This document shows positions 6,467 to 22,731 of a stretch of 22,731 nucleotides of DNA, in pieces. Location: the UHGV virus genome UHGV-1353574; one strand, written 5' to 3'. The number at the start of each line of letters is the position of its first letter. The first letter of the stretch is position 1. Origin of the DNA: a virus. The translations under genes and the position numbers were made by a program. The notes beneath the pieces are model-generated. The model worked only from the letters and a program-made list of their open reading frames with translations. It did no database searches and was not told the origin of the DNA.

Positions 6467-6532
6467 GATGGCGTTCCTTATGTTTTGTCGACTTGCAGCT
6501 CGCTTGAGCCTCCTGACAGGGGTTAAAAGATA

Positions 6533-6558
6533 AAGGGCACGTGGTATTTAGTGCCCTT
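6533..6558 (-). terminator. putative terminator hairpin after the 6564..6848 gene
   Basis: AAGGGCAC (6533-6540) pairs with GTGCCCTT (6551-6558), 10-nt loop; followed on the minus strand by UAUCUUUUAAC. Confidence 0.4.
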
Positions 6559-6563
6559 CAGCC

Positions 6564-7158: not shown

Positions 7159-7319
7159 TTCAGGATTTGACCTGCAAGTAGATAACAGAAACAGACAGAG
7201 AACCCGAGATACCCCAGTGATTTCAGGTAGTTTTTCCTTTCGACTTCACGAGAAAATGCAACGATGTCAATGATGCATGCAAAGATCAGTATTGCGAGTT
7301 TAATTTGTTCGTAGTTCAT
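7155..7319 (-). CDS. small two-helix membrane protein (54 aa), absent from the ORF track
   Basis: ATG at 7319-7317 with AAGGA 8 nt upstream, 2 nt after the gp46 stop (TGA-TC-ATG). Its TGA overlaps the next gene's start (ATGA). Translation MNYEQIKLAILIFACIIDIVAFSREVERKNYLKSLGYLGFSVCFCYLLAGQILK has two hydrophobic segments. Confidence 0.5.
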   Translation of the reverse strand: MNYEQIKLAILIFACIIDIVAFSREVERKNYLKSLGYLGFSVCFCYLLAGQILK

Positions 7320-7321
7320 GA

Positions 7322-9667
7322 TCAATCCTTCTTGATAACTTCAGTCAGGCCGTTTCGCAGGCCGTAGCGAATGTTGTGTTGGAAATATTCCTGGAACTCC
7401 TGTTCGCGCTGGCTAATAACAAACAGGTTGTTCCCACCGAACTTATGCTTCAACATCTCAACCGATTCCTGCACCCCGCGCTCGCTCATGTTCTCAAGGA
7501 TCTCGTCCAACACGAACAGGTTACATTGTACAGACGCCTTGAGGTTAGCCACATCGCGCAGAGCTAATGTCACAGCCAGGTTCAGACGACTGCGCTGACC
7601 AGTAGACAGGGAGAAGATGCTCTGTCCTTTGCGGCCTGCTGCGCTCATGGTGATCTCAAAGGTATCGTCAACAACGATGTCCAAGAACATGTTGAGGGCT
7701 TCAAGATACTCGTTGATCTTGCTATTGAGGAATGGCAGATACAGAGCGATGATACGCGCCTTGGTCTGGTCATCTTTCAAGAAGAACAGCAGGTGTTGTA
7801 AGTCCTGGAGTTCCTCATCTGCATCTTCACGGAGTTCATACAGAGCCTCCAGTTCACCTTCCAACGCAGCGATAGAGTTCTCCAGGTCGGTGGTAGGTGT
7901 TGGCTGTACAGCCAGTTTACGCTCCAGATCGGCAATAGACGCCACGAGAGGAGCACGACGGGCTTTCAGCTCGGCGATCTTATCATCGACGGCTTTAATC
8001 CCGCTGACGGCATTCTCTCGCGTCTGTTGCAGCGACGCAGTGATGTCTTCAAAACGAACGTTCAGTGCCTTACGGATGTCAAGGATCTTCTGTTGGCATT
8101 CACGGTTCAGCGAATTACACTCAATCGTGGCGGCATCATGAAAACCTTGAATATCACGGCGCAGCTGCTTGATGTTGTCGACGATTTCGTCGGCCTGCTT
8201 GCGCATTGCATCCAGTTCAGCATCCAACATAGCAATGTCAGCAACCAGCTTGTCGTCCTGAGCCTTGTGGTCATCGATCAGGACATTGATATCGGCGGTA
8301 ACTTTGTCCAGTTGATCTAACTTCGACTGTAGTTCCTGGATCTGAGGATTGTACTCGCTTTCAATACGCGCCTTGGTATCGTCGGACACCAGTTGGGTAC
8401 ATGTTGGGCAAGTCCCCATATCGTGGAAGCGCTTGATGGCCGACTGGTGGCCATCCATTTCGGTCTGGAACTTGATGCGGAAGTTCTCACCCTGTTGGCG
8501 ACGCTGAATAGCAGCGTTCAGGGCATCCAGGTTTGCATTGCGCTCGGTGAGCAGGGTGTTCTTGCGTTCGGCCACTGTAAAGGCGCGGTCACGCAAGACC
8601 TGAAGATCATGCTCCGCAGTAGACACTTCGATGCGCTCATAATCGTCAGCCTTGTCCTGCGCGGCGTCCTTCACCGCCTGGACCTTGGTATCAAAGTCTT
8701 TCTTGACAGCCTCGATCTCTACCATGGATTCATCATGCAGGCGGCTTTCCACCGTCTTCATTTCCTGGGTGGCTTCAAACTCCACAGCCGTGAGGCGGGT
8801 GCGCTCTTCATTCTGGGCGGCGATGTCAGCATCCAAGGAATTCAGGGCTTCCTGTTGCTGTACAAGGATATCGGCCGACCGCTGTTGGATCAGGGCGTTG
8901 GATTGCTCGATCTGCTGAAGCTGCGTCTTCTTGTTGGTGTGGTCAACAACCTTCAACGCACATTCATTCGCGATCGTGTCCAGCTTTTCGTTCGCTTTCT
9001 TGATGGATGCCTTGACATCTTCGTTCATCAGGCTGAAGAAGCCCAAGTCCCAGATAGTCTCCACCATGGCGCGGCGGTCGGCTGTGTACATCTCCGTGAA
9101 CGGAATGAACTTCTCTTTGCCCAGCACCAGAGAGTTCTCAAACATCTTCTGGTCCACGCCGATGAGGTTCACGATGTACTTGTTCATGTCGGCTTTGGCT
9201 GCTTCGTTATCGATCTGCAACCACTTGCCGTCCACCATCTGGTAGACTTCAACAAAGTCAGGTTTAATGCCACGGCGAACCTTCCATTCGCTACCACGGC
9301 AGGCAAACTCTACCTCGCCCACACATTCCTTGCGGCTTTGTGAGTTAACCAGGCCTGCCTTCTTCTCCTTCTTACTGTACGTGTCGTTGTACAGTACGAA
9401 AAACAGCAGCCATACCAGCATCGTGGATTTACCCGCGCCGTTGTCATCAGACGTGACGAGGGTAGCCGGGTTGCGCTGATAATCAATCTCCATGAATTGA
9501 TTGCCGATGGAGCGGAAGTTCTTGGCGCGGCCTTTGCGGAAGGTCAGTTTGTGCGTAACGTTGTTACGCACTTCAAATGGGACTTCAACCTCGACCGGGG
9601 CGTCGGCTTCCTTCAAAAGATTACCAAATTTGGTCAAGATATCTGTGCTCTGAGTCATGTTATGCAT
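7322..9667 (-). CDS. 46: recombination/repair ATPase, Rad50/SbcC-like (T4 gp46 homolog), 781 aa
   Basis: Walker A DDNGAGKSTM; long coiled-coil-like central region; zinc-hook CPTC; ABC signature LSTGQRSRL; Walker B FVLDEILE. Lies immediately downstream of the Mre11-like gene as in T4. Start could be ATG 9667 or the in-frame ATG 9658. Confidence 0.9.
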   Translation of the reverse strand: MHNMTQSTDILTKFGNLLKEADAPVEVEVPFEVRNNVTHKLTFRKGRAKNFRSIGNQFMEIDYQRNPATLVTSDDNGAGKSTMLVWLLFFVLYNDTYSKKEKKAGLVNSQSRKECVGEVEFACRGSEWKVRRGIKPDFVEVYQMVDGKWLQIDNEAAKADMNKYIVNLIGVDQKMFENSLVLGKEKFIPFTEMYTADRRAMVETIWDLGFFSLMNEDVKASIKKANEKLDTIANECALKVVDHTNKKTQLQQIEQSNALIQQRSADILVQQQEALNSLDADIAAQNEERTRLTAVEFEATQEMKTVESRLHDESMVEIEAVKKDFDTKVQAVKDAAQDKADDYERIEVSTAEHDLQVLRDRAFTVAERKNTLLTERNANLDALNAAIQRRQQGENFRIKFQTEMDGHQSAIKRFHDMGTCPTCTQLVSDDTKARIESEYNPQIQELQSKLDQLDKVTADINVLIDDHKAQDDKLVADIAMLDAELDAMRKQADEIVDNIKQLRRDIQGFHDAATIECNSLNRECQQKILDIRKALNVRFEDITASLQQTRENAVSGIKAVDDKIAELKARRAPLVASIADLERKLAVQPTPTTDLENSIAALEGELEALYELREDADEELQDLQHLLFFLKDDQTKARIIALYLPFLNSKINEYLEALNMFLDIVVDDTFEITMSAAGRKGQSIFSLSTGQRSRLNLAVTLALRDVANLKASVQCNLFVLDEILENMSERGVQESVEMLKHKFGGNNLFVISQREQEFQEYFQHNIRYGLRNGLTEVIKKD

Positions 9668-10775
9668 CCAGTTTGTTCAGGCGTTGTTGGGCAGCATTAT
9701 AGAAGTGCTCTGCTAGTTTACAGACATTGTCGGGGCGCTGAATGTTGTTCCCGGCGCGGATATCCTTCTTCAGGACTTCCACCGCATCGGTCGCCACCAT
9801 CTCTTCGGTGACCTCAACCTTCTCGGCAGCAACAGTAATCGTCCGGTCGATGAAGTTATAGTCAATACACTTGCATCGCTTCATCGCATCACAGAACTTT
9901 TCATAATGCTTAGCATTGTCGCGGTTCTGTACAATAACCTTAACGATTTGCCCTTCAATACCCAAGCCTGTGTTCAACCATTCCGGGTCGATCCAATTGC
10001 CTTCTTCATCAGAGGACAACTTGGTGTAATCATATTCCACATAGCGGAACAGCGTCTGATTCTCGGCGTTTGGGATAAAGATCTCACCACCACGCATGTC
10101 GTCCACATAGAAGCCACGGTTGGTGCCGTCTTTGTAGTCTTCCCAGTTCAGGTGATACGGAGTCCCAATATATTGAATGTTACCTTCCATCGAACGGGTA
10201 TGGAAATGGCCCGTGTCGACCCTGGTAAACTTGGAAAGCAGCGCAACGTCGATCTGACCGTGATCACAAGTAGAAGACTGGTACATTTTGAACCCCGCCA
10301 GCTCCAGATGCGCAAAACAGTACTCGGCGTCTGTATCTTGTATCGCTTTAATAGACGCATCATAGTTCTCCTTGTTGATCCAAGGCAGCAGCAGAGTCTT
10401 GACACCCTCGATCATCACTTCGGTTGGTTCGCTGTAATAGCAGTACACATCCGGGTCGAGTTCGTTCAGGTAGGATGGCCAGTTGATGCGGTTGGACTCT
10501 TCCAGGGTGATGTCATGGTTGCCCACGATGCCATTCCACTTGATACCAGCCGCTTTCAGCGCTGGAGTTAATTCATCCTTCAGCCAGTCTTTGTCGCGCC
10601 CGTACATGAATTTGCGGACATCAAACATATCACCGAACTGCCAGACCTCTTTGATATCAGAGTCGGCAAGTTCAGGAATGAAATAATTGATGAGATAGTT
10701 CTTGATGAAGTCGCGAACGTATCGAGAACCATTACGGCTCCCGATATGCAGATCACCAATTTTAGCAATCGCCAT
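9660..10775 (-). CDS. 47: Mre11/SbcD-like nuclease (T4 gp47 homolog), 371 aa
   Basis: Calcineurin-like phosphoesterase motifs GDLHIG, GDMFD and GNHD. AAGGAG RBS; its start forms a TAATG overlap with the stop of the gp55-like gene. Confidence 0.9.
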   Translation of the reverse strand: MAIAKIGDLHIGSRNGSRYVRDFIKNYLINYFIPELADSDIKEVWQFGDMFDVRKFMYGRDKDWLKDELTPALKAAGIKWNGIVGNHDITLEESNRINWPSYLNELDPDVYCYYSEPTEVMIEGVKTLLLPWINKENYDASIKAIQDTDAEYCFAHLELAGFKMYQSSTCDHGQIDVALLSKFTRVDTGHFHTRSMEGNIQYIGTPYHLNWEDYKDGTNRGFYVDDMRGGEIFIPNAENQTLFRYVEYDYTKLSSDEEGNWIDPEWLNTGLGIEGQIVKVIVQNRDNAKHYEKFCDAMKRCKCIDYNFIDRTITVAAEKVEVTEEMVATDAVEVLKKDIRAGNNIQRPDNVCKLAEHFYNAAQQRLNKLDA

Positions 10776-11503
10776 TATTCTGTTTCTCCTTCGGTTTCAT
10801 CTAGTCCGAATTGGGTTTTGCCGAAGTCCTGATCTGAATTGTCTTCGGCCTGCGCTGTTACCGTATTCTTAGCCTGCGCCATGTATTGAAGTATGCCTTT
10901 CGCAATCTTTTTATTCGATTCTGCGAGACGAGCTGCCTCCACCTTCTCTCGCTCCTTCTGCCTTTGAGCGTCCTTTTTGTTCTCAAAGTTGCCGATACGT
11001 TCACGGAAGTCCATGCCAATTCCTGTAGCATCAACAAAGACCTCTTGTTGGAAGTCGGGATCGTCTGCCAGGCCTGCGAACCCACCCGCCTCTTCAAATG
11101 AGCGCAATTTAATGTACGTGTGCTCTTCTTCGATGTTCAGTTTACGAGCAAATGATCGATCAGCACACATGGTCACCCAAGAGAAGAAGTTGATCTTCCC
11201 TTTCTTTCCAATGTGTTCGACGTCAAATGTGTGGAGGTAGCGCAGGATATTGACTATTGCTTCAGAGACCATGTCTTCACGGAAGGGATAGTCGCGATAG
11301 TTGTAGCGGGTGCTCATCTTGGTGATGATGCGCTGGACCTGTAGAGCAACATAGTTGGGGATCTTTGGAAGCCTGGTGCCTTCAGCCAGAGCCTTCTTAC
11401 GAGCAGGGATCCAATCACGAAGGATACTGATGACACGCTCGTTATCTTCGTCTGTGAAATATTTGACGACATTCTCCCCTCTGTCCACGAAGTTCATTCC
11501 CAT
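10775..11503 (-). CDS. 55: late-transcription sigma factor, T4 gp55-like (242 aa)
   Basis: Position directly upstream of 47/46 as in T4. The segment YNYRDYPFREDMVSEAIVNILRYLHTFDVEH...FFSWVTMCADRSFARK resembles, from memory, the T4 gp55 core. Has a C-terminal charged extension. TATAAATA boxes in the window imply a gp55-type factor is encoded by this phage. Confidence 0.6.
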   Translation of the reverse strand: MGMNFVDRGENVVKYFTDEDNERVISILRDWIPARKKALAEGTRLPKIPNYVALQVQRIITKMSTRYNYRDYPFREDMVSEAIVNILRYLHTFDVEHIGKKGKINFFSWVTMCADRSFARKLNIEEEHTYIKLRSFEEAGGFAGLADDPDFQQEVFVDATGIGMDFRERIGNFENKKDAQRQKEREKVEAARLAESNKKIAKGILQYMAQAKNTVTAQAEDNSDQDFGKTQFGLDETEGETE

Positions 11504-11514
11504 TATGAAATCCC

Positions 11515-12042
11515 TCAGATACCGATAAATTCATCAAAAGATCCAACAACCTTCTTCACCGAGATATTGTCATTCTCAATCAGGAAGTTGCTGTCGTTTT
11601 TGGCTGCTGTAGCCCAGTCATCGGCAAGTTCGTTGCCTTCGTGTCCCGCATGACCCTTAACCCATTTTAGTTCAACTTCACAGATTGAACAAACGAGATC
11701 ATAGATTCTGAACAGATCTTTGATGAGTTCAACGTTCTTTTCTGGGAAACCCTGATACTCCCACTTCGTTCGCCATTCGGTGACACTCTTGATGGCATAT
11801 TGGCTGTCAGACCAAATTGTTGCCTTTGGTATTCTGCGCTCACCCTTTCCTGAGAATGCCCACAGTAGCTTCAATGCGTTGGTCACGCCCAACAACTCGG
11901 CGATATTGTTAGTGGACGGGGGAGGTAGATGGCCGAAGAACACCTTCCATTGCATACCCGTTATTGGCCTGATAACAAATGCCCAGCCTGCGGCCTGGTT
12001 GGTCTTCGGGTTAGAACCCCCGTCAGAATAAATTTCTATCAT
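11515..12042 (-). CDS. rnhA: ribonuclease HI (175 aa)
   Basis: Motifs IYSDGG, ELLGV, SDSQY and KGHAGHEGNELADDWA match the RNase HI DEDD catalytic residues. Track start at 12138 is TTG; the first ATG at 12042 gives an N-terminus aligning with E. coli RNase HI. Confidence 0.85.
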   Translation of the reverse strand: MIEIYSDGGSNPKTNQAAGWAFVIRPITGMQWKVFFGHLPPPSTNNIAELLGVTNALKLLWAFSGKGERRIPKATIWSDSQYAIKSVTEWRTKWEYQGFPEKNVELIKDLFRIYDLVCSICEVELKWVKGHAGHEGNELADDWATAAKNDSNFLIENDNISVKKVVGSFDEFIGI

Positions 12043-12044
12043 GA

Positions 12045-12052
12045 TATAAATA
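12045..12052 (+). promoter_or_regulatory. T4-type late promoter box TATAAATA for the plus-strand gene
   Basis: Exact TATAAATA at 12045-12052, 36 nt upstream of the ATG at 12088, in the 45-bp divergent gap between rnhA and the plus-strand gene. Confidence 0.5.
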
Positions 12053-12087
12053 TCCCAAACTGGTTTTATAGAAAGAGGAATGAAACT

Positions 12088-12855
12088 ATGGCACCCCGCG
12101 CATATCGTTTCAGTCTCACCGCCCCGCAGATTGAGCAATTGCTCCTCTCTATCTATGATGCTATCAAGTCAGAAGATATCATCTATGATTATGCTGCAGG
12201 TGGGACTGCTGGACAAGTCGCAGCAGCGTCTGCTGTCAAGAACATGTGGTTGAAGCTCAACGAGATGGTGACAGGCCAAGGTCTCAAAGATGCCATCAAC
12301 GATGCAGAAGACAGCAACGTGTTCACCGACTATTATAAGTCTTTACTGGATCGCGAAGGTTGGAAATTTATTGGATCTCCAGCAGATGAACTTCAGCGAG
12401 GCGACATCGATACCTCGAACTTCAAAGGTGGTGAGGTCATTCTACTTCAGAAGAACGCTTCGGGCAACCCAGAATTCCAATACTGGAAGCGAACCCCTGT
12501 TGCTGGGGGTGATCCTACCTTTGCATGGGCTTCGGTCTATGAAGGGAACTCTAATGATTCCAGCATAGAGATTCCCGTGGTTGGCACCAGCGTACTCAAG
12601 GACATCCCCAAGGCACTCTTCCATATGATCGAGTTCAGAGTGCATGTCTACGATGAGACACTGGGTCATTGGCAAGACACCGACGGGAAGGTGGGGTATC
12701 GTGGCGAGGATCTGATCTACAGTGTATACAACCATATTCAGACCAAACCTCTCGCCACCATTGACTTCAGCCAAGATACGGACAATATGACGGTTTCTGT
12801 GACGTCGTTGGAACCGAATGTCAAGTGCCATCTGTCCTTCGTTGCGGGTTACTAA
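12088..12855 (+). CDS. hypothetical late protein (255 aa); only convincing plus-strand gene in the window
   Basis: ATG at 12088 with AGAGGAA RBS and a late promoter upstream; stop TAA 12853-12855. The track's longer ORF from 11929 would run antisense through the rnhA start and lie upstream of the promoter, so it was rejected. Confidence 0.7.
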   Translation: MAPRAYRFSLTAPQIEQLLLSIYDAIKSEDIIYDYAAGGTAGQVAAASAVKNMWLKLNEMVTGQGLKDAINDAEDSNVFTDYYKSLLDREGWKFIGSPADELQRGDIDTSNFKGGEVILLQKNASGNPEFQYWKRTPVAGGDPTFAWASVYEGNSNDSSIEIPVVGTSVLKDIPKALFHMIEFRVHVYDETLGHWQDTDGKVGYRGEDLIYSVYNHIQTKPLATIDFSQDTDNMTVSVTSLEPNVKCHLSFVAGY

Positions 12856-14570
12856 ACCTCAAACACGGCATCAGTGAACCAAGCGGGGAAGAACTCTGGG
12901 TTGCGCATCATAAGTGATTCAAAAGAAGAATCAAGGATGTACGTCGCAGCCCAGTCATTCACGCCCCTGACCGAACGCCCACACATCTGAACGATACGCA
13001 GTACCGCCATCCTGAAGTACGCCGATGGGTCCACACTGTTGACGTGGGCCACCAGAGGATCACCAAGGTAATCGTATGGCACCTTGATCAAGATCTGAAA
13101 TCTGCTATAATCGCCTTTGAAGTCATACCCCTCTTCCATGGCCGGACTGGCGATGACACAAGGCGTCTTCGTCCTGAACGCGTGTTCCATGATGTCCATC
13201 AGAGCCTTACGAGTACGAGGAACGTGAATCATATTCCGGTACTTACTGAACTTTTGTAGAGCCAGGGCGCGGTCATAACTGACTGTGTGAATGATGCCAG
13301 ACTGCCCAGGGTGGAACGCGATAATTTCATCCACGTATTCAGCCAGCTTCTTCATCTCGTAGTCACCCATGTTCGCTGTCATCTTCATGATGGGCATGTA
13401 GTTGACTTTCCGGTTCTCAATCGGGATAGGGTTGCCGATCTGTATCTTGTGGTACTCACCCTCGGGGATACCCAGTGACCGGGCGTACGAGTCAATCCCA
13501 CAAATGGTAGCCGACATGTGAACGTGGTAGTCACCCTTGCGGAACAGGCCGAACTGGGATACATCAGAGGCGATGACAGGCTTGAACTGAATCATACCCT
13601 TGTCCTTCTCCTGTACGATGAAAGTGCTGGCGTTGGTCTGCCCCATGATACCACAGTAGTCGCTGAGGTTGTGAAGAGTATCAATAATATCAGACAGCTT
13701 CATCACCTGGGCTTCAGTCAGGCGCTCGTCCTCTACCAGTTCCTCAAGAGTTTCCAACAGGGCTTCAACCTTGCCGTGCAGTTCATCAAATATCGCATGC
13801 ATCTCACCAGACAGGGAATACAGCTTGCCCAATTCATAGTTCTCTGTGCGGATGATGATATCCTTGATGGTCTCCACGATAGGCACTCCCTCAGGGATCG
13901 TAAGCAACCCTTCCACAGCCTTTATGTTGTATTCCATGATAGTATGCTCTAGGAGCGTAGAGGGCATTTTATGACACTCGTCAAGGATCAGCATATCGGC
14001 ACGGTTTTCCGGCTTCATACAAATCGTCGTACACATCTCCACCATCATGGCGGCGTTGGTGCAGCGCAGGGAGGAGACGTCGGTCCACTGTCGACGCGCC
14101 TGAACATATGGACAACGATTCTTACTACAGTGGCCATCACGGCATGCCATACGGCACTGAATGGCGTTGTAGTATAGGTCGGGGCTGATGTGGCAACGGT
14201 AGTTCTTCTTGCCCTTCAGGATGTCTATCGCCACGGCTTTCTCTGCTGCATACTGATCCTGTAAACCTTTGGTCGGCGTCGTGATAGACGTGCGGAACTG
14301 ACCATACGGGTTGTGCTCAAGAACCAAATGGCGAAGCACGTTATGGATGGTAGTGCCGATGAGGGATTTACCTACACCAGTCGGAGCCTCGATGATCACG
14401 TGTTTGAATTTCTTATTCACAAGGGCATCAATGGCTTCAACGATGCATTCCATCTGGCCGGGGTTGGCGGTGTCATACGGGAAGAACTCAGTGGCAAGAG
14501 ACTTGATGCGGTCTATGCTGACTGGTCCGACGCCGTCAAGCGCCTTGGTATATTGGTTGAATGCTGTCAC
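12852..14570 (-). CDS. dinG: SF2 helicase of the Rad3/XPD/DinG family with a putative Fe-S Cys cluster (572 aa)
   Basis: Walker A EAPTGVGKSL; DEAH-type box LILDECHK; Cys-rich insert CHISPDLYYNAIQCRMACRDGHCSKNRCPY between them, as in Fe-S XPD/DinG helicases. GTG start at 14570 supported by AGGAGG 7 nt upstream; no in-frame ATG until residue 40. Confidence 0.8.
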   Translation of the reverse strand: MTAFNQYTKALDGVGPVSIDRIKSLATEFFPYDTANPGQMECIVEAIDALVNKKFKHVIIEAPTGVGKSLIGTTIHNVLRHLVLEHNPYGQFRTSITTPTKGLQDQYAAEKAVAIDILKGKKNYRCHISPDLYYNAIQCRMACRDGHCSKNRCPYVQARRQWTDVSSLRCTNAAMMVEMCTTICMKPENRADMLILDECHKMPSTLLEHTIMEYNIKAVEGLLTIPEGVPIVETIKDIIIRTENYELGKLYSLSGEMHAIFDELHGKVEALLETLEELVEDERLTEAQVMKLSDIIDTLHNLSDYCGIMGQTNASTFIVQEKDKGMIQFKPVIASDVSQFGLFRKGDYHVHMSATICGIDSYARSLGIPEGEYHKIQIGNPIPIENRKVNYMPIMKMTANMGDYEMKKLAEYVDEIIAFHPGQSGIIHTVSYDRALALQKFSKYRNMIHVPRTRKALMDIMEHAFRTKTPCVIASPAMEEGYDFKGDYSRFQILIKVPYDYLGDPLVAHVNSVDPSAYFRMAVLRIVQMCGRSVRGVNDWAATYILDSSFESLMMRNPEFFPAWFTDAVFEV

Positions 14571-14622
14571 TTTCTTCCTCCTATGGGATTCGCCTTTAGT
14601 TTAACCGATTCCCAGGAACGAA

Positions 14623-14649
14623 AAAGCCGGAGTACAATGCTCCGGCTTT
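14623..14649 (-). terminator. rho-independent terminator after the HU-like gene
   Basis: Perfect 10-bp stem AAAGCCGGAG / CTCCGGCTTT with 7-nt loop; minus-strand RNA followed by UUUUUCGUU. Plus strand also T-rich, so possibly bidirectional. Confidence 0.55.
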
Positions 14650-14698
14650 CTCTTTTGCCATGCCCTGATTGCAGAGCCTGGCCGCGCGTCAGATAGAA

Positions 14699-14977
14699 TT
14701 ACTTGCCGTTGGCAGCGTTCTTCAGACCTTCGCCCACTTTGAATTTCACAACGTTTTTCGCCGCGATCTGAATGGTCTGGCCGTTCAGAGGGTTGCGACC
14801 TTCACGCGCTTCTTGGTGTTTCACTTCGAACGCACCGAAGCCGACCAGCTGTACAGATGCGCCTGCAGCAACTGCAGTTTTAACACCGTCGATAAAGGAT
14901 GCCACTACTTTCTCCGCTTCGCCTTTGGTGATATTCTGGGTCGAAGCAATGTGGGCAACAAATTCAGTACGATTCAT
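14699..14977 (-). CDS. hup: HU/IHF-family DNA-binding protein (92 aa)
   Basis: MNRTEF...GFGAFEVKHQEAREGRNPLNGQTIQIAAKNVVKFKVGEGLK matches the HU fold signature (N-terminal helix, GRNP arm). ATG 14977 with GGAGA RBS. Confidence 0.85.
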   Translation of the reverse strand: MNRTEFVAHIASTQNITKGEAEKVVASFIDGVKTAVAAGASVQLVGFGAFEVKHQEAREGRNPLNGQTIQIAAKNVVKFKVGEGLKNAANGK

Positions 14978-15102
14978 CTGGATTTCTCCGTTGGGTTAAT
15001 GTTTACTTTCATGTTCACTACAAGAGGGCTACAGTTTAACTAACAAATTTTATTGAATAAAGCGGAATTAATAGCCTTTCACCACGATTACAGTCTTTGT
15101 GC

Positions 15103-15543
15103 TCATATTTGCTCCGTTTGTTTCTCAACGCCCAGTGCGGCGGCATAGATACCACGAGCCATGCGATCATCACAAAATCCATACGTGAATAATCCAGCAA
15201 TGGCATCAAGGCGTTCCTGTGTTGGTGTGACAGGCACAGACACCGTTTGAACTTCAGTCTTTTCGGTGCCTTCCGGTTTCATCAAGACCTCCATTTCTTG
15301 ACGACTAACAACAATGGTTTCTACCTTATCTTCATCGATCAACATTTCGTTCAGAAGATCGTATCCCAACACTTGTGTATCGCCGATATATGTCTTCGCG
15401 TTCAGTTGTGCTTCGATACTTAACACCCTCTGAGCTGTAAGGCCACCAGAGGAGAACGGTACTGGATAGAAGGCGGAACGCACTTGGGCACACCCATTTA
15501 CGCTGTAACGAACCAGCAAGACATCACACCATACGCCAGCCAT
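15103..15543 (-). CDS. hypothetical protein (147 aa)
   Basis: Track start 15561 would overlap the upstream gene by 17 nt. The ATG at 15543 has GGAGGT 5 nt upstream and sits 1 nt after the upstream stop (TAATATG), so it is preferred. Confidence 0.6.
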   Translation of the reverse strand: MAGVWCDVLLVRYSVNGCAQVRSAFYPVPFSSGGLTAQRVLSIEAQLNAKTYIGDTQVLGYDLLNEMLIDEDKVETIVVSRQEMEVLMKPEGTEKTEVQTVSVPVTPTQERLDAIAGLFTYGFCDDRMARGIYAAALGVEKQTEQI

Positions 15544-15544
15544 A

Positions 15545-16207
15545 TTACACCTCCACCGCATGAGACTTCAGGAGTTCATCAATCTCTTTCTGCCCCATGT
15601 ATGAGAACGGGGTGCGCTGGTAGAACGCCCAGAGTACTAACTGGACAACAGCACGGGAACGGGTTTCGGCCGTCATCACCAGGCCACTGAAATGAGGAGA
15701 CTCAGCTGTCCATTGTATCTCTTCGCCCAGGTCTTGATTACAGGTCACCGAGATGCGGAACTTGTTGCACAGATTGTCGACTTCTTTGTACGCATCGGTA
15801 GACACACGAAGTTGTTCCGCATGTGCCCACGGAGTTGTGACGATTCTTTCACCCAACGTCTTTTCTGAAACGAACCAATCAATAGATTGGGTAAACTCGC
15901 TAAAATGGTCGATACGATAAATACAGTCTCCCCCTTCCATAGAACGCATGGCATGATAGCGAGCGTCAATTTCATTGTTGTGCATAGCGTTGAAGTCGAT
16001 GAACACGCGACGCGCCAGCACAACATCTTCTGGTTGAAGTGCCAGGAAATCGTTCAGGCGGCTATAATGGAGGATATTGGAACCGTCGTGGCCACGTGTG
16101 CAATATGCGTAATAGCTACCGATACGGGTGTGGGTAATATAAGACAACGGGGCGAAGAATAATCCGTCAGGATCAGGACCGACGATAATAGAATAAAGTT
16201 TTTCCAT
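15545..16207 (-). CDS. hypothetical protein (220 aa)
   Basis: Track ORF from 16306 would overlap the upstream gene and a hairpin; the ATG at 16207 is preceded by the recurrent CTATATC-ATG context. No recognisable motif. Confidence 0.55.
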   Translation of the reverse strand: MEKLYSIIVGPDPDGLFFAPLSYITHTRIGSYYAYCTRGHDGSNILHYSRLNDFLALQPEDVVLARRVFIDFNAMHNNEIDARYHAMRSMEGGDCIYRIDHFSEFTQSIDWFVSEKTLGERIVTTPWAHAEQLRVSTDAYKEVDNLCNKFRISVTCNQDLGEEIQWTAESPHFSGLVMTAETRSRAVVQLVLWAFYQRTPFSYMGQKEIDELLKSHAVEV

Positions 16208-16228
16208 GATATAGTCACTCAAATGAAA

Positions 16229-16252
16229 GGGCAGCTTTATGATAAGCCGCCC
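16229..16252 (-). terminator. putative terminator after the 16264..17130 gene
   Basis: Minus-strand RNA GGGCGGCUU-AUCAUA-AAGCUGCCC (9-bp stem with one G-U) followed by UUUCAUUU. Confidence 0.45.
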
Positions 16253-16263
16253 GAGGTTATTGA

Positions 16264-17130
16264 TTATTGGAAATCGCCAACATACATGTTCAGCTTGTCG
16301 TCCCAATTCAGAACGACACGGATCGTTCCAGTATCTTCTGGGAAGGTCAGTTTGTCACACATGGCGCGATTAACATAAGTCCCGCTCTGGTTGACGTTGT
16401 AGTCCTTGCCTTGCATGATACCAAAACGCTTGAAGTCGCGAGTGACCATCATGTTCAGAGTTGTCCAAGGGATTGTATCGCGCAGGGCTTTGCACAGGAC
16501 GATCTTGCCATCCGACCTGAACGACACAAACAGCTCGTTGGCGACACGACGGCGAGTAGGCGGTTCAAGTTCACGCAGGGAAATGAATTGTGAATTCTTT
16601 ACCTTTTCTGCCAGCGCCTGTACTTCTGCTGGATCCGGCTTGAACGGCTCCACTGAAGAGTCAGACTTCATCACAACGTCACCCTTGCGCTTCTCAACCA
16701 ATTGCTCCACAGCCTTTTGACTCACGGGAGGGAGGTATTTGGACTTAGGAACAACCGCTGGCTTGATGACAGGGCTTGCATCTGGTTTCGCCTTTGGAGT
16801 ACTCCGAGCCGCACGCAGCTTTTCCTGGGCTTGTAGAATGCGCTCTTGACGAGAAAGCGGAGCCTTTGGGGTGATCTTCGTACTGAAGTCAGAAACGCCG
16901 ACCCAGTCACCCTGGTCGTTGCGCTTGGCGACCAGGGTCAGTTTGTGGATGATACCCTGAAGTTTGCTCTCACGTAAGTTGTCGGCATACCAGAACTTCG
17001 CGCCCATCTCGAACTTCTCGGCGAAGATCACGCGAGCGTCTTCGTGTACCAACATAACTTTGGCTGCGTTGGGGGCAAAAGCCTTATTCTTTTCGATAAT
17101 CGCCGCAGCGATTGTTTTGGTCAGGAGCAT
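16264..17130 (-). CDS. hypothetical protein (288 aa) with a Pro/Lys/Ala-rich central linker
   Basis: Track start 17133 is GTG; the adjacent ATG at 17130 has GAAGGAA upstream. Central segment KAKPDASPVIKPAVVPKSKYLPPVSQK looks like a disordered linker between two domains. Confidence 0.6.
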   Translation of the reverse strand: MLLTKTIAAAIIEKNKAFAPNAAKVMLVHEDARVIFAEKFEMGAKFWYADNLRESKLQGIIHKLTLVAKRNDQGDWVGVSDFSTKITPKAPLSRQERILQAQEKLRAARSTPKAKPDASPVIKPAVVPKSKYLPPVSQKAVEQLVEKRKGDVVMKSDSSVEPFKPDPAEVQALAEKVKNSQFISLRELEPPTRRRVANELFVSFRSDGKIVLCKALRDTIPWTTLNMMVTRDFKRFGIMQGKDYNVNQSGTYVNRAMCDKLTFPEDTGTIRVVLNWDDKLNMYVGDFQ

Positions 17131-17169
17131 CACAGTGTATTCCTTCAGTTCACAATGTAGGGCTAAATT

Positions 17170-17496
17170 TTAACCCGAAACTTTATTTTGAAATCCGACA
17201 AAGTCCTGGGCAATCCCCCGACAATACATCAGGTCTTTCTTCGTTTGTGGACTGTTATCAGCCGCAGTCAGCATCATGGGAAGATCCAGCGCATTCTCTA
17301 TCTGATCAACACTGAACAGATCAAGGCGCTTCAGCTCCCCCTCGAAGTCGGACAGGAGGATAGATGTGTCTTTGTCATCTGGGTGGAACTGCTGATACGT
17401 CTCCATCCATGCCACACATGTGTTCAGTTTGGACGGTGGCGCGGCGTTTACACACCCGGCTATCAGTACCAACAAGAGCAGGATTTTACATTTCAT
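17170..17496 (-). CDS. putative lipoprotein (108 aa)
   Basis: ATG at 17496 with AAGGAG 8 nt upstream, overlapping the upstream stop (ATGA). N-terminus MKCKILLLLVLIAGC carries a lipobox (LIAG-C) after a hydrophobic signal peptide. Confidence 0.65.
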   Translation of the reverse strand: MKCKILLLLVLIAGCVNAAPPSKLNTCVAWMETYQQFHPDDKDTSILLSDFEGELKRLDLFSVDQIENALDLPMMLTAADNSPQTKKDLMYCRGIAQDFVGFQNKVSG

Positions 17497-18710
17497 CACT
17501 CGTTCTCCTTCATCATATTGTCGCAGTCAACACGAGTCTGCTGGAGTTCGCGCGACATGCGGGGATCATCAAGGTTCACGCTCAGATTCGTGGCCAGGTC
17601 TTTCAGACCGTTCTGAACACGATCCTCAAAATAATAATCGTTCTCAACCAGCCAGGCTCTGAGACCAAGAGCGCGGGTGCGCCATTCCTTCTTCAGGACG
17701 CGATCAGAGGTCTGCGTGGCGCTGTATTCGAATACTTTGACGCACTGGTTGCCATCGTTGATGAGGTTCAGGTGGCGGCGACCAACCTGCACACCCTTCT
17801 GTAATGCCGGAGAAGGGAGCGAACGGCACTGTCTGACTGTCATTCGGCCTTGGGTGCCCATTCGGCCAGTCATGATTAAATCGCCAGCCTCCATGCCTCC
17901 ACGGTTAAATTCGTCGTCATTGAGGTAGCCTTTGAGGTTATAGGCTCCCTGTTTGTAACGGTTGAACTCAATTCCGGCATTGACGACAGCAGTGGAGACG
18001 TTGCCTGTGTTCCAGAGTTCAGCGAAGTTCTCTATGGAACCAGACTTGTCGATGGCAACCGCCTGGGAGAACCCAGCACAATAGGAAAGGTCGGACCACA
18101 GTTTATCACCTGTGGAGTTCAGCTTGGCAGCGGCGGGTAATGCCAGACCAGCCAGCACAACCCCGAGGATTAAACGTTTCATGGCGATTCTCCTTATTTC
18201 ATTGGATGAAATGATAGGCGGCTCACCATGTTGAGTAAAGGGATTCAATAAACTATCGTATTCAGAAACGGGTATCACTGACCGTTCTGTATCGCACACC
18301 CTGAAACTGTTTAGCGAGTTTAACAATTCCATCGCTGGCAAATCAACTTTGTAGACCTTCATGCGCTGTTTGCCGTCCATGTTCAACGCAGCGACAAATC
18401 GGTGAGAACCGTCAACAACGTAATTGTCAGAAGACACCCAAACTCGACCCATAGGTTTCTTATTTCTGATCTGCTTCATAATCTTCCAGACCTTCATTTT
18501 ATTGATTTCGTTCTGGGTAAGACGAAGCATTTTGATGGGCACTTGCACAGCATCTATGGACACGCCGTTGTCTTCAAGATATTTGTGAAAATCTTCTTGT
18601 TTGTCGGCATCGATTTGCGGCATAGAAGAACGAGAAAGCCCGAGGTTCCCAACAGGAATCCTCAGGCCGTTAATGATGTTCAACCAGTCAATAAAAGATG
18701 TAAGGAACAT
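17496..18710 (-). CDS. ParB-like N-terminal domain fused in frame to a signal-peptide-led C-terminal domain (404 aa); possible internal second start at 18182
   Basis: ATG 18710 with GAGGTG RBS. N-terminal 176 aa carry a ParB/Srx-like motif (YVVDGSHRFVAA). At 18182 an in-frame ATG with AAGGAG 8 nt upstream begins MKRLILGVVLAGLALPAAAK, a signal-peptide-like segment. No stop separates the two parts. Confidence 0.6.
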   Translation of the reverse strand: MFLTSFIDWLNIINGLRIPVGNLGLSRSSMPQIDADKQEDFHKYLEDNGVSIDAVQVPIKMLRLTQNEINKMKVWKIMKQIRNKKPMGRVWVSSDNYVVDGSHRFVAALNMDGKQRMKVYKVDLPAMELLNSLNSFRVCDTERSVIPVSEYDSLLNPFTQHGEPPIISSNEIRRIAMKRLILGVVLAGLALPAAAKLNSTGDKLWSDLSYCAGFSQAVAIDKSGSIENFAELWNTGNVSTAVVNAGIEFNRYKQGAYNLKGYLNDDEFNRGGMEAGDLIMTGRMGTQGRMTVRQCRSLPSPALQKGVQVGRRHLNLINDGNQCVKVFEYSATQTSDRVLKKEWRTRALGLRAWLVENDYYFEDRVQNGLKDLATNLSVNLDDPRMSRELQQTRVDCDNMMKENE

Positions 18711-18718
18711 GACACACC

Positions 18719-18738
18719 TCGGGATATAGGGTTATCCC
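18719..18738 (-). other. perfect 6-bp hairpin directly upstream of the RBS of the 17496..18710 gene
   Basis: GGGATA-TAGGGT-TATCCC; no U-tract; abuts the GAGGTG Shine-Dalgarno, so possibly a translational or processing element. Confidence 0.3.
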
Positions 18739-18742
18739 TTAG

Positions 18743-18901
18743 TTAGCGCATCCATCGATCCTTTCTCTCTTTCTCCTTGCGTTCGCGACGTTTCTGATCG
18801 GATCGGAATAACCAATAGAAGAAGTTCCCACCCAAGATGAAAACCACCGCGATTATTACTAGGACACCCTTCACAATTTCCCAAACCAATTCTTTATCCA
18901 A
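18743..18901 (-). CDS. possible small single-pass membrane protein with a strongly basic tail (about 43-52 aa); start uncertain, no ATG
   Basis: Track ORF 18743..18934 starts with TTG inside the upstream gene. In-frame TTG at 18901 (GAGG 6 nt upstream) or GTG at 18874. Hydrophobic segment VKGVLVIIAVVFILGGNFFYWLF followed by RSDQKRRERKEKERKDRWMR. Lies in a 192-bp gap between genes. Confidence 0.3.
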   Translation of the reverse strand: MDKELVWEIVKGVLVIIAVVFILGGNFFYWLFRSDQKRRERKEKERKDRWMR

Positions 18902-18902
18902 A

Positions 18903-19562
18903 TTATACCTCGTCTTCTTCAGGTCCACCGTCAATCAGGATACGAGCGGTGTCGAAAGTTTCCCCGCCCGTGTTCAACAGCTTGGTTAGATCATCAAGAG
19001 TACCGACAGGACCAAGATCAGCCTGGCGGAGAACGAACTCGAGAAGCCCGTAGAGCGCTGATTGGAATCGGCTGTTGTCGATATCGTTCTTTATTACCAT
19101 CAGGCGTAAGATGTTCTCTGACTGAGTATGGCCAACACACGCCTTGTCTCTGATCATCTCCTTGATAGAACTTCTCTCGGATGGTGTCATAACGTACCCC
19201 CGACAGAGATCAAGAACTCTTCTTGCATGGTCTTGACCGGGTGGTGGTTGCGGGTTTTCGAACATGAAGCCCCAGCCACCGTCGGCGACGTTGCCAAAGG
19301 TCTTGACGCCAAAGGACTTCGTCCCGTTGGAGCAGGAATAGATGTCCAGGACGTATGGGCTACCCTGATTGTCGATCCCACGATTCACGTCGTCTGATAC
19401 GCAGCGCTCAATCATCTTCCCGTTCTTATACAGAACGAGGTCTTGGCCATACGCCTTGAAAGCATAAACACCGTTGGTAGACACTCCGGTGATGACAGGA
19501 GGGGCGGAAACAGCAGCAAAGGAAGCGCCCAGCAGGGCAACAGCGAGGATTAACTTTTTCAT
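18903..19562 (-). CDS. exported hypothetical protein (219 aa)
   Basis: Track start 19583 is TTG; ATG at 19562 gives N-terminus MKKLILAVALLGASFAAVSA, a typical Sec signal peptide resembling the internal MKRLILGVVLAGLALPAAA of the preceding gene. Mature part contains several Cys. Confidence 0.65.
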   Translation of the reverse strand: MKKLILAVALLGASFAAVSAPPVITGVSTNGVYAFKAYGQDLVLYKNGKMIERCVSDDVNRGIDNQGSPYVLDIYSCSNGTKSFGVKTFGNVADGGWGFMFENPQPPPGQDHARRVLDLCRGYVMTPSERSSIKEMIRDKACVGHTQSENILRLMVIKNDIDNSRFQSALYGLLEFVLRQADLGPVGTLDDLTKLLNTGGETFDTARILIDGGPEEDEV

Positions 19563-19586
19563 GATATAGTCTCTTGGTTTCAAATG

Positions 19587-19608
19587 GGCGGGGTATGATT
19601 ACCCCGCC
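19587..19608 (-). repeat. stem-loop repeat copy A (GGCGGGGTA-loop-TACCCCGCC)
   Basis: Perfect 9-bp stem with 4-nt loop (TGAT on plus strand), between the 19615..20121 gene stop and the 19562 start. A near-identical 22-nt element occurs at 20146-20167. Confidence 0.5.
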
Positions 19609-19614
19609 GTGGGT

Positions 19615-20121
19615 TTATAGGGTAACAAGTGATACGGTAAAAACCATCGTCCCGTCTGTTGCCATTTTTCTTGAAACTGGTATGACGCGAGGCTGGCAGA
19701 ATATCCATTCTTTCTCCATGGACGCCAAGTCCAGCATATCCATTTCTGATTCATCGCCTTTGTTCACAAATTTTTCTAGAGAACCATAGACATTAAGCCC
19801 CTCCGGGATTCTGTTTCGATGTTTGTAACAAATGCGGGCAACAGCTTGGGTTCCGTACGATTTAGAAAATTTTTTGGCCACATGCTTCAGTTCACTGAAG
19901 CTAAGGCAAGAATCCCATGTCTGGAACATGTCGCCTCGTTCAAACATCATCCCTAAACGCGCAACGTCCTCTTTAGGCAACCCGCGATAAAGTGTGGTCG
20001 TCTGTGGTTCGCGCAATTCTTGCACCAGATCACGGACGGCAGGGGAAACAGTACCGGGGCGCATGATGTGGGACTTATCATGGACGAGGTAAAATAAATC
20101 TTGAATTTGTTGATCGGTCAT
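19615..20121 (-). CDS. hypothetical protein (168 aa)
   Basis: Track start 20142 is TTG; ATG at 20121 with AGGAA RBS and the recurrent ACTATACC-ATG context. Contains LYRG ... S-x-S ... ESE residues that could be read as an R-S-E ADP-ribosyltransferase-like pattern, but this is weak. Confidence 0.6.
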   Translation of the reverse strand: MTDQQIQDLFYLVHDKSHIMRPGTVSPAVRDLVQELREPQTTTLYRGLPKEDVARLGMMFERGDMFQTWDSCLSFSELKHVAKKFSKSYGTQAVARICYKHRNRIPEGLNVYGSLEKFVNKGDESEMDMLDLASMEKEWIFCQPRVIPVSRKMATDGTMVFTVSLVTL

Positions 20122-20145
20122 GGTATAGTTCCTGCATTTCAAATA

Positions 20146-20167
20146 GACGGGGTAATCATACCCCGCC
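20146..20167 (-). repeat. stem-loop repeat copy B
   Basis: CGGGGTA-ATCA-TACCCCG on the plus strand; its reverse complement TGGGCGGGGTATGATTACCCCG matches copy A (19585-19606) over about 22 nt. Lies between the 20181..20420 gene stop and the 20121 start. Confidence 0.5.
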
Positions 20168-20180
20168 CAAAGTTATAGAA

Positions 20181-20420
20181 TTAACTGATGTGCTTCAGAA
20201 GAGCGAAGAGGATCACGGCCTTGGCCTTTACCTTTCCTACGATGCCTGTCTCGACATCAACTTCTTCAGCAACCCACTCTTTGCCTTTCTTGCTGATGAT
20301 CACGTCACGGCGCTGTGCGTAGACTTCTTTGGTCGCATACACACGACGGAACCCTTTAGCGCGGAGCAATCCCCAATTACGATCAATTTCTACTGAGGTT
20401 TCTACCATTTTGTTCTTCAT
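20181..20420 (-). CDS. hypothetical protein (79 aa)
   Basis: ATG 20420-20418 preceded by TTGAAA-N8-TATATC; stop TAA 20181-20183. Confidence 0.55.
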   Translation of the reverse strand: MKNKMVETSVEIDRNWGLLRAKGFRRVYATKEVYAQRRDVIISKKGKEWVAEEVDVETGIVGKVKAKAVILFALLKHIS

Positions 20421-20471
20421 GATATAATCTTACCTTTCAACCCGGTGAACCCATCGTTCGCCAGTTATTGA

Positions 20472-20501
20472 ATAATAGGACATTCCTTAGAGGAAGTAAA
20501 C
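20472..20501 (-). promoter_or_regulatory. candidate sigma70-like (T4 early-type) promoter for the 20181..20420 gene
   Basis: Minus-strand GTTTAC (rc of 20496-20501), 18-nt spacer, TATTAT (rc of 20472-20477); lies just downstream of the terminator at 20517-20536. Confidence 0.3.
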
Positions 20502-20516
20502 CCCTAAAAGTAAAAA

Positions 20517-20536
20517 TCCCCAACGTTTGTTGGGGA
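20517..20536 (-). terminator. rho-independent terminator after the ACP-like gene
   Basis: Perfect 8-bp stem TCCCCAAC / GTTGGGGA with 4-nt loop; minus-strand RNA followed by UUUUUACUUUUAG. Confidence 0.55.
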
Positions 20537-20542
20537 CTTCTG

Positions 20543-20866
20543 TTATTTGCGCAGGGCAACCACGAGTTCAGCGAGTTCACCCATGGTCGGGTCATCACCT
20601 TTACTACCCAGCCAACCGTCGTCGATTTCGACCTGAAACTCTTCTTCTAGTTCCATTACGATTTCGATGGCATCCAGTTCGTCACCGCCGAGGTCTTTCT
20701 TGGTACGGAGACCAGCCAGCTTGTCCAGGGCGTCCTCGTTCTGAGATGCCACGTCGTCCAGCAATTTGCGCTTGTCATCGTCACGCCACAGATCCATATT
20801 CAGATTGTCAGTGGCGTACTGAGCCAGATGACGCATGACTTCAACATATGTTGGTTTACTGCTCAT
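20543..20866 (-). CDS. acyl-carrier-protein homolog lacking the phosphopantetheine-attachment serine (Ser->Glu), 107 aa
   Basis: ...KDLGGDELDAIEIVMELEEEFQVEIDD... aligns by eye with E. coli AcpP ...[24 protein letters not shown]...; the conserved Ser is Glu (GAA, rc of 20678-20680). ATG 20866 with GGGAGAAG RBS, 1 nt after the upstream stop (TAG-C-ATG). Confidence 0.7.
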   Translation of the reverse strand: MSSKPTYVEVMRHLAQYATDNLNMDLWRDDDKRKLLDDVASQNEDALDKLAGLRTKKDLGGDELDAIEIVMELEEEFQVEIDDGWLGSKGDDPTMGELAELVVALRK

Positions 20867-20867
20867 G

Positions 20868-21473
20868 CTACTTCTCCCAAAGAAAGGCGGGTTGCCCCGC
20901 CCGTTGGATTAGATTTTGATTTTCTTTCTCTGTCAGTTCGGCAGTGACCTTGTACTTCACGCCATCCACTTCAACTTCCATGGTGGACTCTTCCAGGTCG
21001 AGGTCGGTGAACCAGCCGTGGCCAGCAACGATACCATACACCACTTTAGACAGTGTCTTGTTCAGGGCACGGACTTCGGTGATGGCCGCCTTGGCAGCAG
21101 CGTCGATCCAGTTTTCGATCAGCTGTTTCTGTAAGGCTTCAGGCACGGCAGTGATCATAGGAGACTTCACGAATGCTTCGTACTCTTTCAGAGCATTGGC
21201 GATGAACAAGTCACCAGCATTGAGTTTCTTGTTCTCTGCGATCTTCTTCTGTACTGCCGCGATGCTCGGTAGTGAAGACGCCCCGGCGATCTTCACGTTC
21301 AGCTCACGGCTCATGTAGAAGTCGGTAGACTCTTTGGTCTCAGTCTTCGGTGAGAAGCCGTAATCGCGGATGCCGTAGGAGGACAGGAACTCGGCCGCCT
21401 CAGCGCCGTACTGTACTGCCAGGCCTTTGGCGTTACCCTTACCAACCAGGGCGTCTCGATAGAACTTCAGCAC
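20868..21473 (-). CDS. C-terminal segment (about 201 codons) of a large gene that appears split by a +1 frame change; alternatively a separate gene with a GTG start
   Basis: Track ORF starts with GTG at 21473; the first ATG is at residue 54. The upstream ORF ends 35 nt into this frame, and the two frames can be joined at an A-run (minus strand CTGAAAAGG, plus strand tttt at 21487-21490). Confidence 0.5.
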   Translation of the reverse strand: MLKFYRDALVGKGNAKGLAVQYGAEAAEFLSSYGIRDYGFSPKTETKESTDFYMSRELNVKIAGASSLPSIAAVQKKIAENKKLNAGDLFIANALKEYEAFVKSPMITAVPEALQKQLIENWIDAAAKAAITEVRALNKTLSKVVYGIVAGHGWFTDLDLEESTMEVEVDGVKYKVTAELTEKENQNLIQRAGQPAFLWEK

Positions 21474-22731
21474 CTTCTGCTTGCCTTTTCAGGGCTTCCA
21501 GACGGACATTATCCGCAAAGAACTGAGCAGCACTGATGTTCTTGACCATGGCGCGGTTGACCAGCGGTACGCTTTCCAGGTTCAGGACAAACACTTCTGG
21601 ACCACCAAACACGTGGACGCCCATTTCGATCAGCTTATGCACGACTTCGATATCAGCCTTGAACGGCAGAGTCTTCACGTTAATGATACCGTCTTTGACG
21701 ATGGTGTAGTTGCGCCACTGGAAAGTATCCAGTTCTTCAGGCAGGCCAAACTTCTTCTGTGCGAATTCAGGCACAGCCACAGTACCGTGTTGAATTGTAC
21801 GCACACTGATGTTCGGGCGCTCGGAGTTATAGACCAAATCACTGATTGGCACAACACCCAGATCGTTGGTAGGTTCGAACGTCGGGTTCCACTCTTCGTG
21901 CTCTGCCAGCTTGAGAGCCAGGGCTTTACGCTCTTCTTTGGACTGAGCATTCGCGATCTGTTCTGCCAGCTTGTCTTCGGTGTCGTCGGTTTTCTGCACA
22001 GTACCGCGCCCGATGCTCTTGTAGGAGAACATCGGATGCTTGGTAGCAACAGGCACACCAGCTTCAGCCAGGTACGTCAGCACATCAACGACGGTGGTCG
22101 CATCTTCAGCTGGAACCAGGTCATAGTCAATACCGTCAACGCCGCGCAGCTGGTCGTCAACAATCGCCTGTACCAGATCGTTCTTGATGTTGGAGTAGTC
22201 CTGCTTGGTGAAGCAGTTGCTGTACTGTTTGATGAAGCGAACGTCGCCCGTCTTCTTCAGCGCAGCCCAAACCAGATCTGCGTCCATAGTGTGTACACCG
22301 TAGAACGCCAGCACATATGCCGCCTGGATGTCCGTCAGGCTATCCATCTGGTCGATCATGTTAGGGTTTACAACCCACAGCTTGGTGACGCTCTCAGGGA
22401 TGCTCACGTGGCCGATAGGATGGTCTTCATCCGGCTGTACCGCCAGAACAGTTGCTACGCCGTTTTCAACATAGATGGCGTGGGTGTATAGCAGAGGCAC
22501 ATCAACAACCACCTTCGGCACTGATGACTTCAGCACGTTTTCCAGTTCGGTCTGGTATTCGGTCTGACCTTCGGCAAACACGTGAGTAGCACCAGAGAGT
22601 TCGGCCATCTGCGCCAGCAGTTCTCGGTTACAGTACCAGCCATATTCGATGAAAGTAATGTTATCGAAAGCAAATGGCAGGGTCTCAGCAACCAGTAGAA
22701 TTTCGTTGGTACGCCAGCAGTTGTCATACCC
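21439..22731 (-). CDS. hypothetical protein, internal/3' part (5' end beyond window end); upstream part of the split large gene
   Basis: Track ORF 21439..22608 starts at the first ATG, but the same frame stays open to position 22731 (...GYDNCWRTNEILLVAETLPFAFDNITFIEYGWYCNRELLAQ-MAELSG...), so the gene begins outside the window. Stop TAA 21439-21441. No motif recognised. Confidence 0.6.
   Translation of the reverse strand, partial: GYDNCWRTNEILLVAETLPFAFDNITFIEYGWYCNRELLAQMAELSGATHVFAEGQTEYQTELENVLKSSVPKVVVDVPLLYTHAIYVENGVATVLAVQPDEDHPIGHVSIPESVTKLWVVNPNMIDQMDSLTDIQAAYVLAFYGVHTMDADLVWAALKKTGDVRFIKQYSNCFTKQDYSNIKNDLVQAIVDDQLRGVDGIDYDLVPAEDATTVVDVLTYLAEAGVPVATKHPMFSYKSIGRGTVQKTDDTEDKLAEQIANAQSKEERKALALKLAEHEEWNPTFEPTNDLGVVPISDLVYNSERPNISVRTIQHGTVAVPEFAQKKFGLPEELDTFQWRNYTIVKDGIINVKTLPFKADIEVVHKLIEMGVHVFGGPEVFVLNLESVPLVNRAMVKNISAAQFFADNVRLEALKRQAEGAEVLSRRPGW

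Follow-up and report, generated by a model that had tools for sequence, protein, structure and literature searches.

The locus studied here raises a simple question. A large minus-strand gene lying upstream of an ACP-like gene is divided between two reading frames, and this division may belong to the phage, as a recent mutation, a programmed ribosomal frameshift or a pair of overlapping genes, or it may belong only to the sequence as assembled. The window, by which we mean the whole stretch of viral DNA that was analysed (UHGV virus genome UHGV-1353574, 22,731 nt), is a piece of an Ackermannviridae (Aglimvirinae-like) phage. Our data indicate that the split is, in all probability, a homopolymer-length error in a draft virome contig, that a single gene is present and that the division does not represent a biological feature.

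The two ORFs are readily seen in the ORF list and in the sequence. The first is open at the window edge and stops at the TAA at 21441-21439, while the second (21473..20868, 201 aa) begins with GTG, overlaps the first by 35 nt and, by a count on its translation, has its earliest ATG at codon 54. When one A of CTGAAAAGG is deleted, the two merge into one ORF of 620 codons that extends inward from the window edge and reads ...VRLEALKGKQKVLKFYRDALVGKGN.... A sequence-only reading of this DNA had described the overlap, the GTG as the sole start ahead of codon 54 and a joined ORF of about 600 codons, all of which we could reproduce. It had placed the plus-strand T-run at 21487-21490, one base to the right of where it actually lies, and had overlooked a second extra base of the same gene, in the T-run at 20920-20923. 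The pair of ORFs is not a chance overlap because in a profile search both pieces matched PHROG 2426, one at positions 129-548 and the other, next in order, at 553-733 of this 736-position profile. The features discussed below are collected in Table 1.

Table 1. Positions of the split gene, its neighbours and the single-base differences in the window.
Feature	Position	Strand	Remarks
5' fragment of the gene for the vWA-domain protein, truncated at the window edge	21442..22731	-	codons 128 to ~542 of the 733-codon ortholog
Frameshift site	21486..21489	-	plus strand TTTT = coding AAAA, CTG AAA AGG; relatives have three bases, CTG AAA GGC
3' part of the vWA gene, codons ~542-733, +1 frame	20909..21488	-	native stop TAA 20911-20909 after removal of the second extra base
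Second extra base of the vWA gene	20920..20923	-	TTTT vs TTT; TTT in 18/18 relatives
Intrinsic-terminator-like hairpin	20885..20902	-	GGGCGGG GCAA CCCGCC then TTCTTT; terminator scan; RNA fold -18.3 kcal/mol
ACP-like gene, 107 aa, intact	20543..20866	-	Pfam PP-binding 26.0 bits (cut-off 20.8); PHROG 4154
Extra T in the 124-aa signal-peptide gene (PHROG 5474)	19255..19258	-	private; TTT in relatives and in the same-strain NCBI contig
Missing base in the 149-aa gene (PHROG 2859; 18265-18710)	18325..18326	-	plus strand AA vs AAA; private

The gene in related phages

The two ORFs are parts of one 733-codon gene that is widely conserved in phages and encodes a protein with a von Willebrand factor A (vWA) domain, and the window contains the last 606 codons of this 733-residue Ackermannviridae protein (PHROG 2426). 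When the 733-aa proteins of AV101 and fGh-Ecl02 were aligned to the window by tblastn, residues 128-542 mapped to 22731-21487 in frame -1 and residues 542-730 to 21488-20922 in frame -2, the latter stretch being 100% identical to AV101. After codon ~542 the edge ORF runs on for 15 out-of-frame codons (RQAEGAEVLSRRPGW) before it stops. With both extra bases removed, the 606-aa product aligns to AV101 residues 128-733 without a gap and with 97.9% identity, and the AV101 ortholog in turn matches PHROG 2426 over its full length (residues 1-733 against positions 2-736, 1227 bits). The N-terminal part is a von Willebrand factor A / MIDAS domain (Pfam PF00092), the vWA fold with its DxSxS metal-site motif being present, and members of PHROG 2426 are annotated as 'vWFA domain containing protein' in phages Maynard, LIMEstone1 and RC-2014. 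The junction, at about residue 542, falls within a predicted continuous helix (528-556; the model is a confident one, pLDDT 86.6) and in a conserved motif in which L538 and K546 are nearly invariant and V547 is invariant.

Every relative at approximately 97-99% DNA identity reads CTG-AAA-GGC at the junction and has a single 2202-nt CDS, and in all annotated relatives the gene is one CDS of 2202-2220 nt. The run at the frameshift site has three bases in 4/4 relatives examined by direct alignment and in 18/18 distinct DNA loci. In some 30 additional independent contigs of metagenome or SRA origin, taken from ENA, Logan and NCBI, the gene is called whole, as 733 aa in all but one, the exception being a call of 705 aa from a later start. 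A tblastn search with an 89-aa junction-spanning peptide gave at least 80% coverage in 464 of the 464 matching phage records, and all 60 rows sampled across the ranking were single-piece matches, including those from Straboviridae at 55-58% identity. When the corrected product was compared with ~5.8 billion proteins, almost all of the 120 cluster representatives listed were 676-789 aa long, and nearly all of them covered the whole corrected query, at identities down to 28%. An exact-pattern scan for the four-A junction allele found no copy in IMG/VR, JGI metagenomes or GTDB genomes; the three-A allele was found by the same scan in one IMG/VR contig and had zero hits in JGI metagenomes and GTDB genomes. 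INPHARED contained no genome at least 99% identical over the full window.

These comparisons bear directly on the reading in which two separate overlapping genes are present, the second starting from the GTG at 21473. This GTG is indeed in frame, and the mechanical ORF list does give an ORF of 201 aa. Nevertheless, in all the relatives the same GTG encodes a Val inside a single ORF, the sole Shine-Dalgarno-like bases (GAAGG) abut it with zero spacer, the two pieces follow one another along a single profile, and the ORF end at 20868 is itself created by the second indel; moreover, a division at this point would cut what is predicted to be one helix. We thus consider two genes to be wholly improbable. 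The sequence-only reading had also suggested a comparison with orthologs, in which a pair of genes overlapping in the same way, with the GTG start conserved, would speak against a split gene. We observed the opposite, one ORF throughout, so its central claim, that one large gene is divided by a single extra base in an A-run, holds, while its option of two overlapping genes has to be abandoned.

Two groups of homologs deserve separate mention. In Klebsiella phage Matisse (L052, 2465-4681) the vWA homolog is one 2217-nt CDS encoding 738 aa. The homologs of Slopekvirus-type Straboviridae, which have 55-58% identity around the junction, are not accompanied by an adjacent ACP-like gene, and the vWA-ACP gene pairing therefore appears to be specific to Ackermannviridae. 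A 482-aa match with 99% identity (P0014) was considered as a copy from the same strain and rejected: it comes from a different strain, in which the gene is split elsewhere by a nonsense substitution. In an E. coli draft assembly carrying a related phage (L047; NCBI GCA_022664555.1, JAKSXQ010000082.1, 3876-6077) the gene calls divide the vWA gene into products of 195 and 482 aa. Since this sequence aligns to AV101 without indels, its split is due to a nonsense substitution at a different place, and the disruption is independent of that in the window.

In the real phage the vWA gene would be translated as one chain ending in ...TEKEIKI, followed by the terminator and then by the ACP-like gene. 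The hairpin (20902-20885) sits six bases past the native stop TAA, and phage Maynard has an annotated terminator at the corresponding position. The second extra base shifts the last three codons, changing the C-terminus from ...EKEIKI* to ...EKENQNLIQRAGQPAFLWEK*, and with the native stop lost the ORF is carried past 20911-20909 and through the hairpin to 20868. Identical copies of the ACP-like protein are found on many contigs. In the E. coli acyl carrier protein AcpP the phosphopantetheine attachment motif is DLGADSLD; in the ACP-like protein the Ser of this DSL motif is replaced by Glu (DLGGDELD), an exchange common to the window and to each of the 16 distinct variants obtained from the fetched relatives. 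With Glu at the attachment site this protein, as judged from its sequence, cannot serve as an acyl carrier of the conventional kind. Like the vWA gene, the neighbouring gene for this Ser-less protein is a conserved phage gene.

Single-base indels and same-strain assemblies

The extra base at the junction is not a solitary event. We regarded an indel as private if it was seen against all of the six close genomes compared with the window, and four such indels were found, at 18325 (A missing) and at 19255, 20920 and 21486 (an extra T each). All of them are 1-nt changes in 3-base A/T runs, uncompensated and located in coding sequence, and all lie within 3.2 kb; together they break three conserved genes, two of the four falling in the vWA gene. 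At each of the four sites the 3-base run is intact in all 16-18 distinct relatives. The extra T at 19255 fuses the 124-aa gene to the downstream 95-aa gene, creating a spurious 226-aa ORF (18903..19583), and the base missing at 18325 frameshifts the last ~20 codons of the 149-aa gene, which is intact in the same-strain NCBI contig described below. When the same test was applied to the six relatives, their private indels were intergenic or compensated, except for one change in a C-run in AV101. At ~8044 AV101 (L005) has a private extra C (CCCCC vs CCCC) that shortens its NrdA.1-like gene to 53 aa, the length in the window and in fGh-Ecl02 being 109 aa; this extra C is likely to be another homopolymer artefact, here in a deposited genome.

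Exact-product look-ups revealed two further assemblies of evidently the same strain. The Logan contig ERR975170_46 is 100.000% identical to window positions 1243-15110. The NCBI contig CYGL01000374.1 (GCA_001292545.1) has 0 mismatches and three 1-nt indels against window positions 5544-19389 (13.8 kb), the latter being the point where this contig ends. Its runs at 18326 and 19258 are intact, as in all the relatives, and two of the window's four private indels are therefore not a property of the strain. At 14618 one A present in the window as well as in the Logan contig is missing from the NCBI contig. Further to the left, one SNP (1242) and a 2-nt T-run deletion (2764-5) set the NCBI contig apart from the window; the deletion splits a 1025-aa gene, whole in the window and in the Logan contig, into pieces of 645 and 377 aa. 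The same-strain assemblies thus differ almost only by the length of A/T runs, each having its own spurious frameshifts. Counting together the same-strain assembly differences and the window-private indels, all six events (2764-2765, 14618, 18325, 19255, 20920 and 21486) are in A/T runs, which make up 53-56% of the runs in the window. In the relatives a gene for 5-hmdU DNA kinase (PF18723) lies past the vWA gene, a few kb outside the window as measured from its edge at 22731; it may be speculated that thymidine hypermodification might bias sequencing at T runs.

For window positions 19390-22731, which include the indels at 20920 and 21486, the exact-product look-ups found no same-strain sequence. 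Look-ups with the 168-aa, 79-aa and ACP proteins gave no same-strain contig over 19.4-22.7 kb, these queries being absent from the contigs of that sample or too common to reach short contigs, and the exact products of the window's frameshifted ORFs (201, 219 and 430 aa) were present on no record. The two indels of the vWA gene were for this reason judged by analogy, and they probably share their origin with the two that could be checked.

Homopolymer-length miscalls are typical of flow-based sequencers (454, Ion Torrent) and of nanopore reads, and they create spurious frameshifts. In the present case a run of AAA would have been miscalled as AAAA at 21486-21489 during sequencing or assembly of a draft contig that apparently comes from a human gut virome data set. 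The CYGL01 (HumMal) set of the NCBI contig is, we assume, that of the Malawian-twin gut virome project, in which multiple displacement amplification was reportedly followed by pyrosequencing. Flow-based sequencing would explain the homopolymer errors. Another CYGL01 record is listed as 'Assembly HumMal, Ma_F259_Contig_623' (PMC10888812), a label from which it follows that the source is a metagenome or virome assembly and not an isolate.

Not every unusual feature of the window is of this kind. Positions 1-117 are an inverted copy of a segment of the DNA primase gene that lies ~1 kb further left in the relatives (100% identity to 15991-16107 of the Logan contig L048); the piece is joined at ~114-117 and truncates a 203-aa gene after residue 125. 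This left end looks like a chimeric join, made by amplification or in assembly, or a 1.4-kb inversion, and amplification chimeras would explain it. The large minus-strand gene at 1621-4698 encodes 1025 aa, compared with 906-913 aa in AV101 and fGh-Ecl02, as a result of a 357-nt in-frame insertion at 3748-4104. The same length of 1025 aa is found in other contigs, among them the complete-genome-sized Logan contigs L048 and L049, so the insertion is a natural length variant and was rejected as a further error. Similarly, the gp55-like late sigma factor gene (10775-11503, minus strand), with 18 nt in the window where AV101 has 68 nt, encodes a 242-aa C-terminal variant (...GLDETEGETE) in place of the 263 aa of AV101; this variant is common to ZQ1 and several metagenome contigs and is for that reason taken as natural, not as another error.

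Mutation, slippage and recoding

If the frameshift belongs to the phage, it has to be very recent. An old pseudogene was rejected, as there is no decay after the break: the 189 residues that follow it are 100% identical to AV101, and a comparison of the 192 corrected downstream codons with the relatives gave 0-12 synonymous differences and 0-2 nonsynonymous ones. A real, very recent frameshift, giving a knockout or a minority allele of the vWA gene that may be partly rescued by +1 slippage, appears unlikely to us, although several observations speak in its favour. The extra base stands in the sequence as given. The loss of the vWA gene might be tolerated, because in another draft assembly it is split by a nonsense substitution. 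The reads, furthermore, may be mixed. One end of the Logan contig lies at 1243, beside the SNP at 1242, and the other at ~18322 (assuming that its unseen last 3.2 kb have no indels), within ~4 nt of the 18325 indel; as both ends adjoin sites where the same-strain assemblies differ (1242 and 18325-6), the read set is heterogeneous there, suggesting that the reads contain both variants at these positions. Recurrent miscalls could produce this pattern, and a mixed population could do likewise.

The insertion creates CTG AAA AGG, in which AAA can re-pair with AAA in the +1 frame, and AGG is a rare Arg codon in enterobacteria. A +1 slip of the Lys tRNA at AAA AGG would, as far as can be read from the codons, restore the exact wild-type protein sequence. 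There is a precedent for such a rescue in E. coli rpoB, where a +1-nt insertion is suppressed at the ~5% level at CCC AGG (PMC10861913); intrinsic +1 suppression of the frameshift mutation at the slippery CCC followed by the rare AGG is described in PMC7022156, in so far as that work is relayed by PMC10861913. Against a real mutation stand the four independent indels that break the frame of three conserved genes over 3.2 kb with no other decay, a pattern unexpected in a viable lineage, and the absence of two of the four from a same-strain assembly that has different indels of its own, which points to data quality. The second +1 insertion of the same gene, moreover, lies beyond rescue by the same slip. 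That the four-A allele circulates in the gut phage population and is partly functional through its self-made AAA AGG slippage, with an efficiency of a few per cent, seems to us very improbable. If true, it would give the rpoB 'saviour' frameshift a naturally occurring counterpart in a phage.

A programmed +1 ribosomal frameshift as the normal mode of expression of the vWA gene would require still more. From its codons, AAA AGG may be said to resemble a +1-prone site in both its P-site and its A-site (PMC2790909 and general knowledge), and a weak GGAAG can be found by eye a few nt upstream of the shift site. In the FSscan study (PMC2790909) the E. coli sequences assayed for +1 frameshifting with a reporter included an AAA AGG cassette from pspD, which is not named there among the top-ranked candidates or the significant shifters. 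Every ortholog, however, has the in-frame CTG AAA GGC, neither the two-frame arrangement nor the shift site is conserved, and the site owes its existence to the extra base alone. Programmed frameshifting is excluded for practical purposes because no ortholog needs it. Among the four options put forward by the sequence-only reading, it is the first, a sequencing indel at a homopolymer, that the evidence favours, and the option of a programmed frameshift falls with the finding of one ORF in all the orthologs.

Implications and comparison with known systems

A homopolymer-length error being the preferred explanation, the split itself brings no new biology; its value is that of a quality flag. The last 4.4 kb of the window contain at least four single-base errors, which yield false gene splits, a false fusion (the 226-aa ORF mentioned above) and a false C-terminal extension. 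Gene calls and unusual ORFs at 18.3-22.7 kb should therefore be read against intact orthologs.

Among the known systems with which this locus may be compared, the suppression in rpoB is similar in that the extra base of the window makes AAA AGG, as rpoB has CCC AGG, and a +1 slip would restore the wild type; it is dissimilar in that AAA AGG is here unique to the window and is known from sequence alone. The +1 shift of prfB, the gene for release factor 2, shows conservation across the bacteria, and a Shine-Dalgarno-like stimulator precedes it. With prfB the window shares a P-site codon able to re-pair in the +1 frame and a slowly decoded A-site codon, but in the vWA gene there is no shift in any ortholog and no convincing stimulator. 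The resemblance to homopolymer miscalls of draft assemblies extends to the single-base gain or loss in a short mononucleotide run, to several such events per contig, to each same-strain assembly having its own set while the protein is otherwise intact, and to the fragmented contigs; the differences are that the runs in the window are short (3 bases) and that all six events are in A/T runs. Finally, in comparison with the vWA-domain proteins of Ackermannviridae and Slopekvirus-type Straboviridae (PHROG 2426), the gene of the window differs only by its two extra bases.
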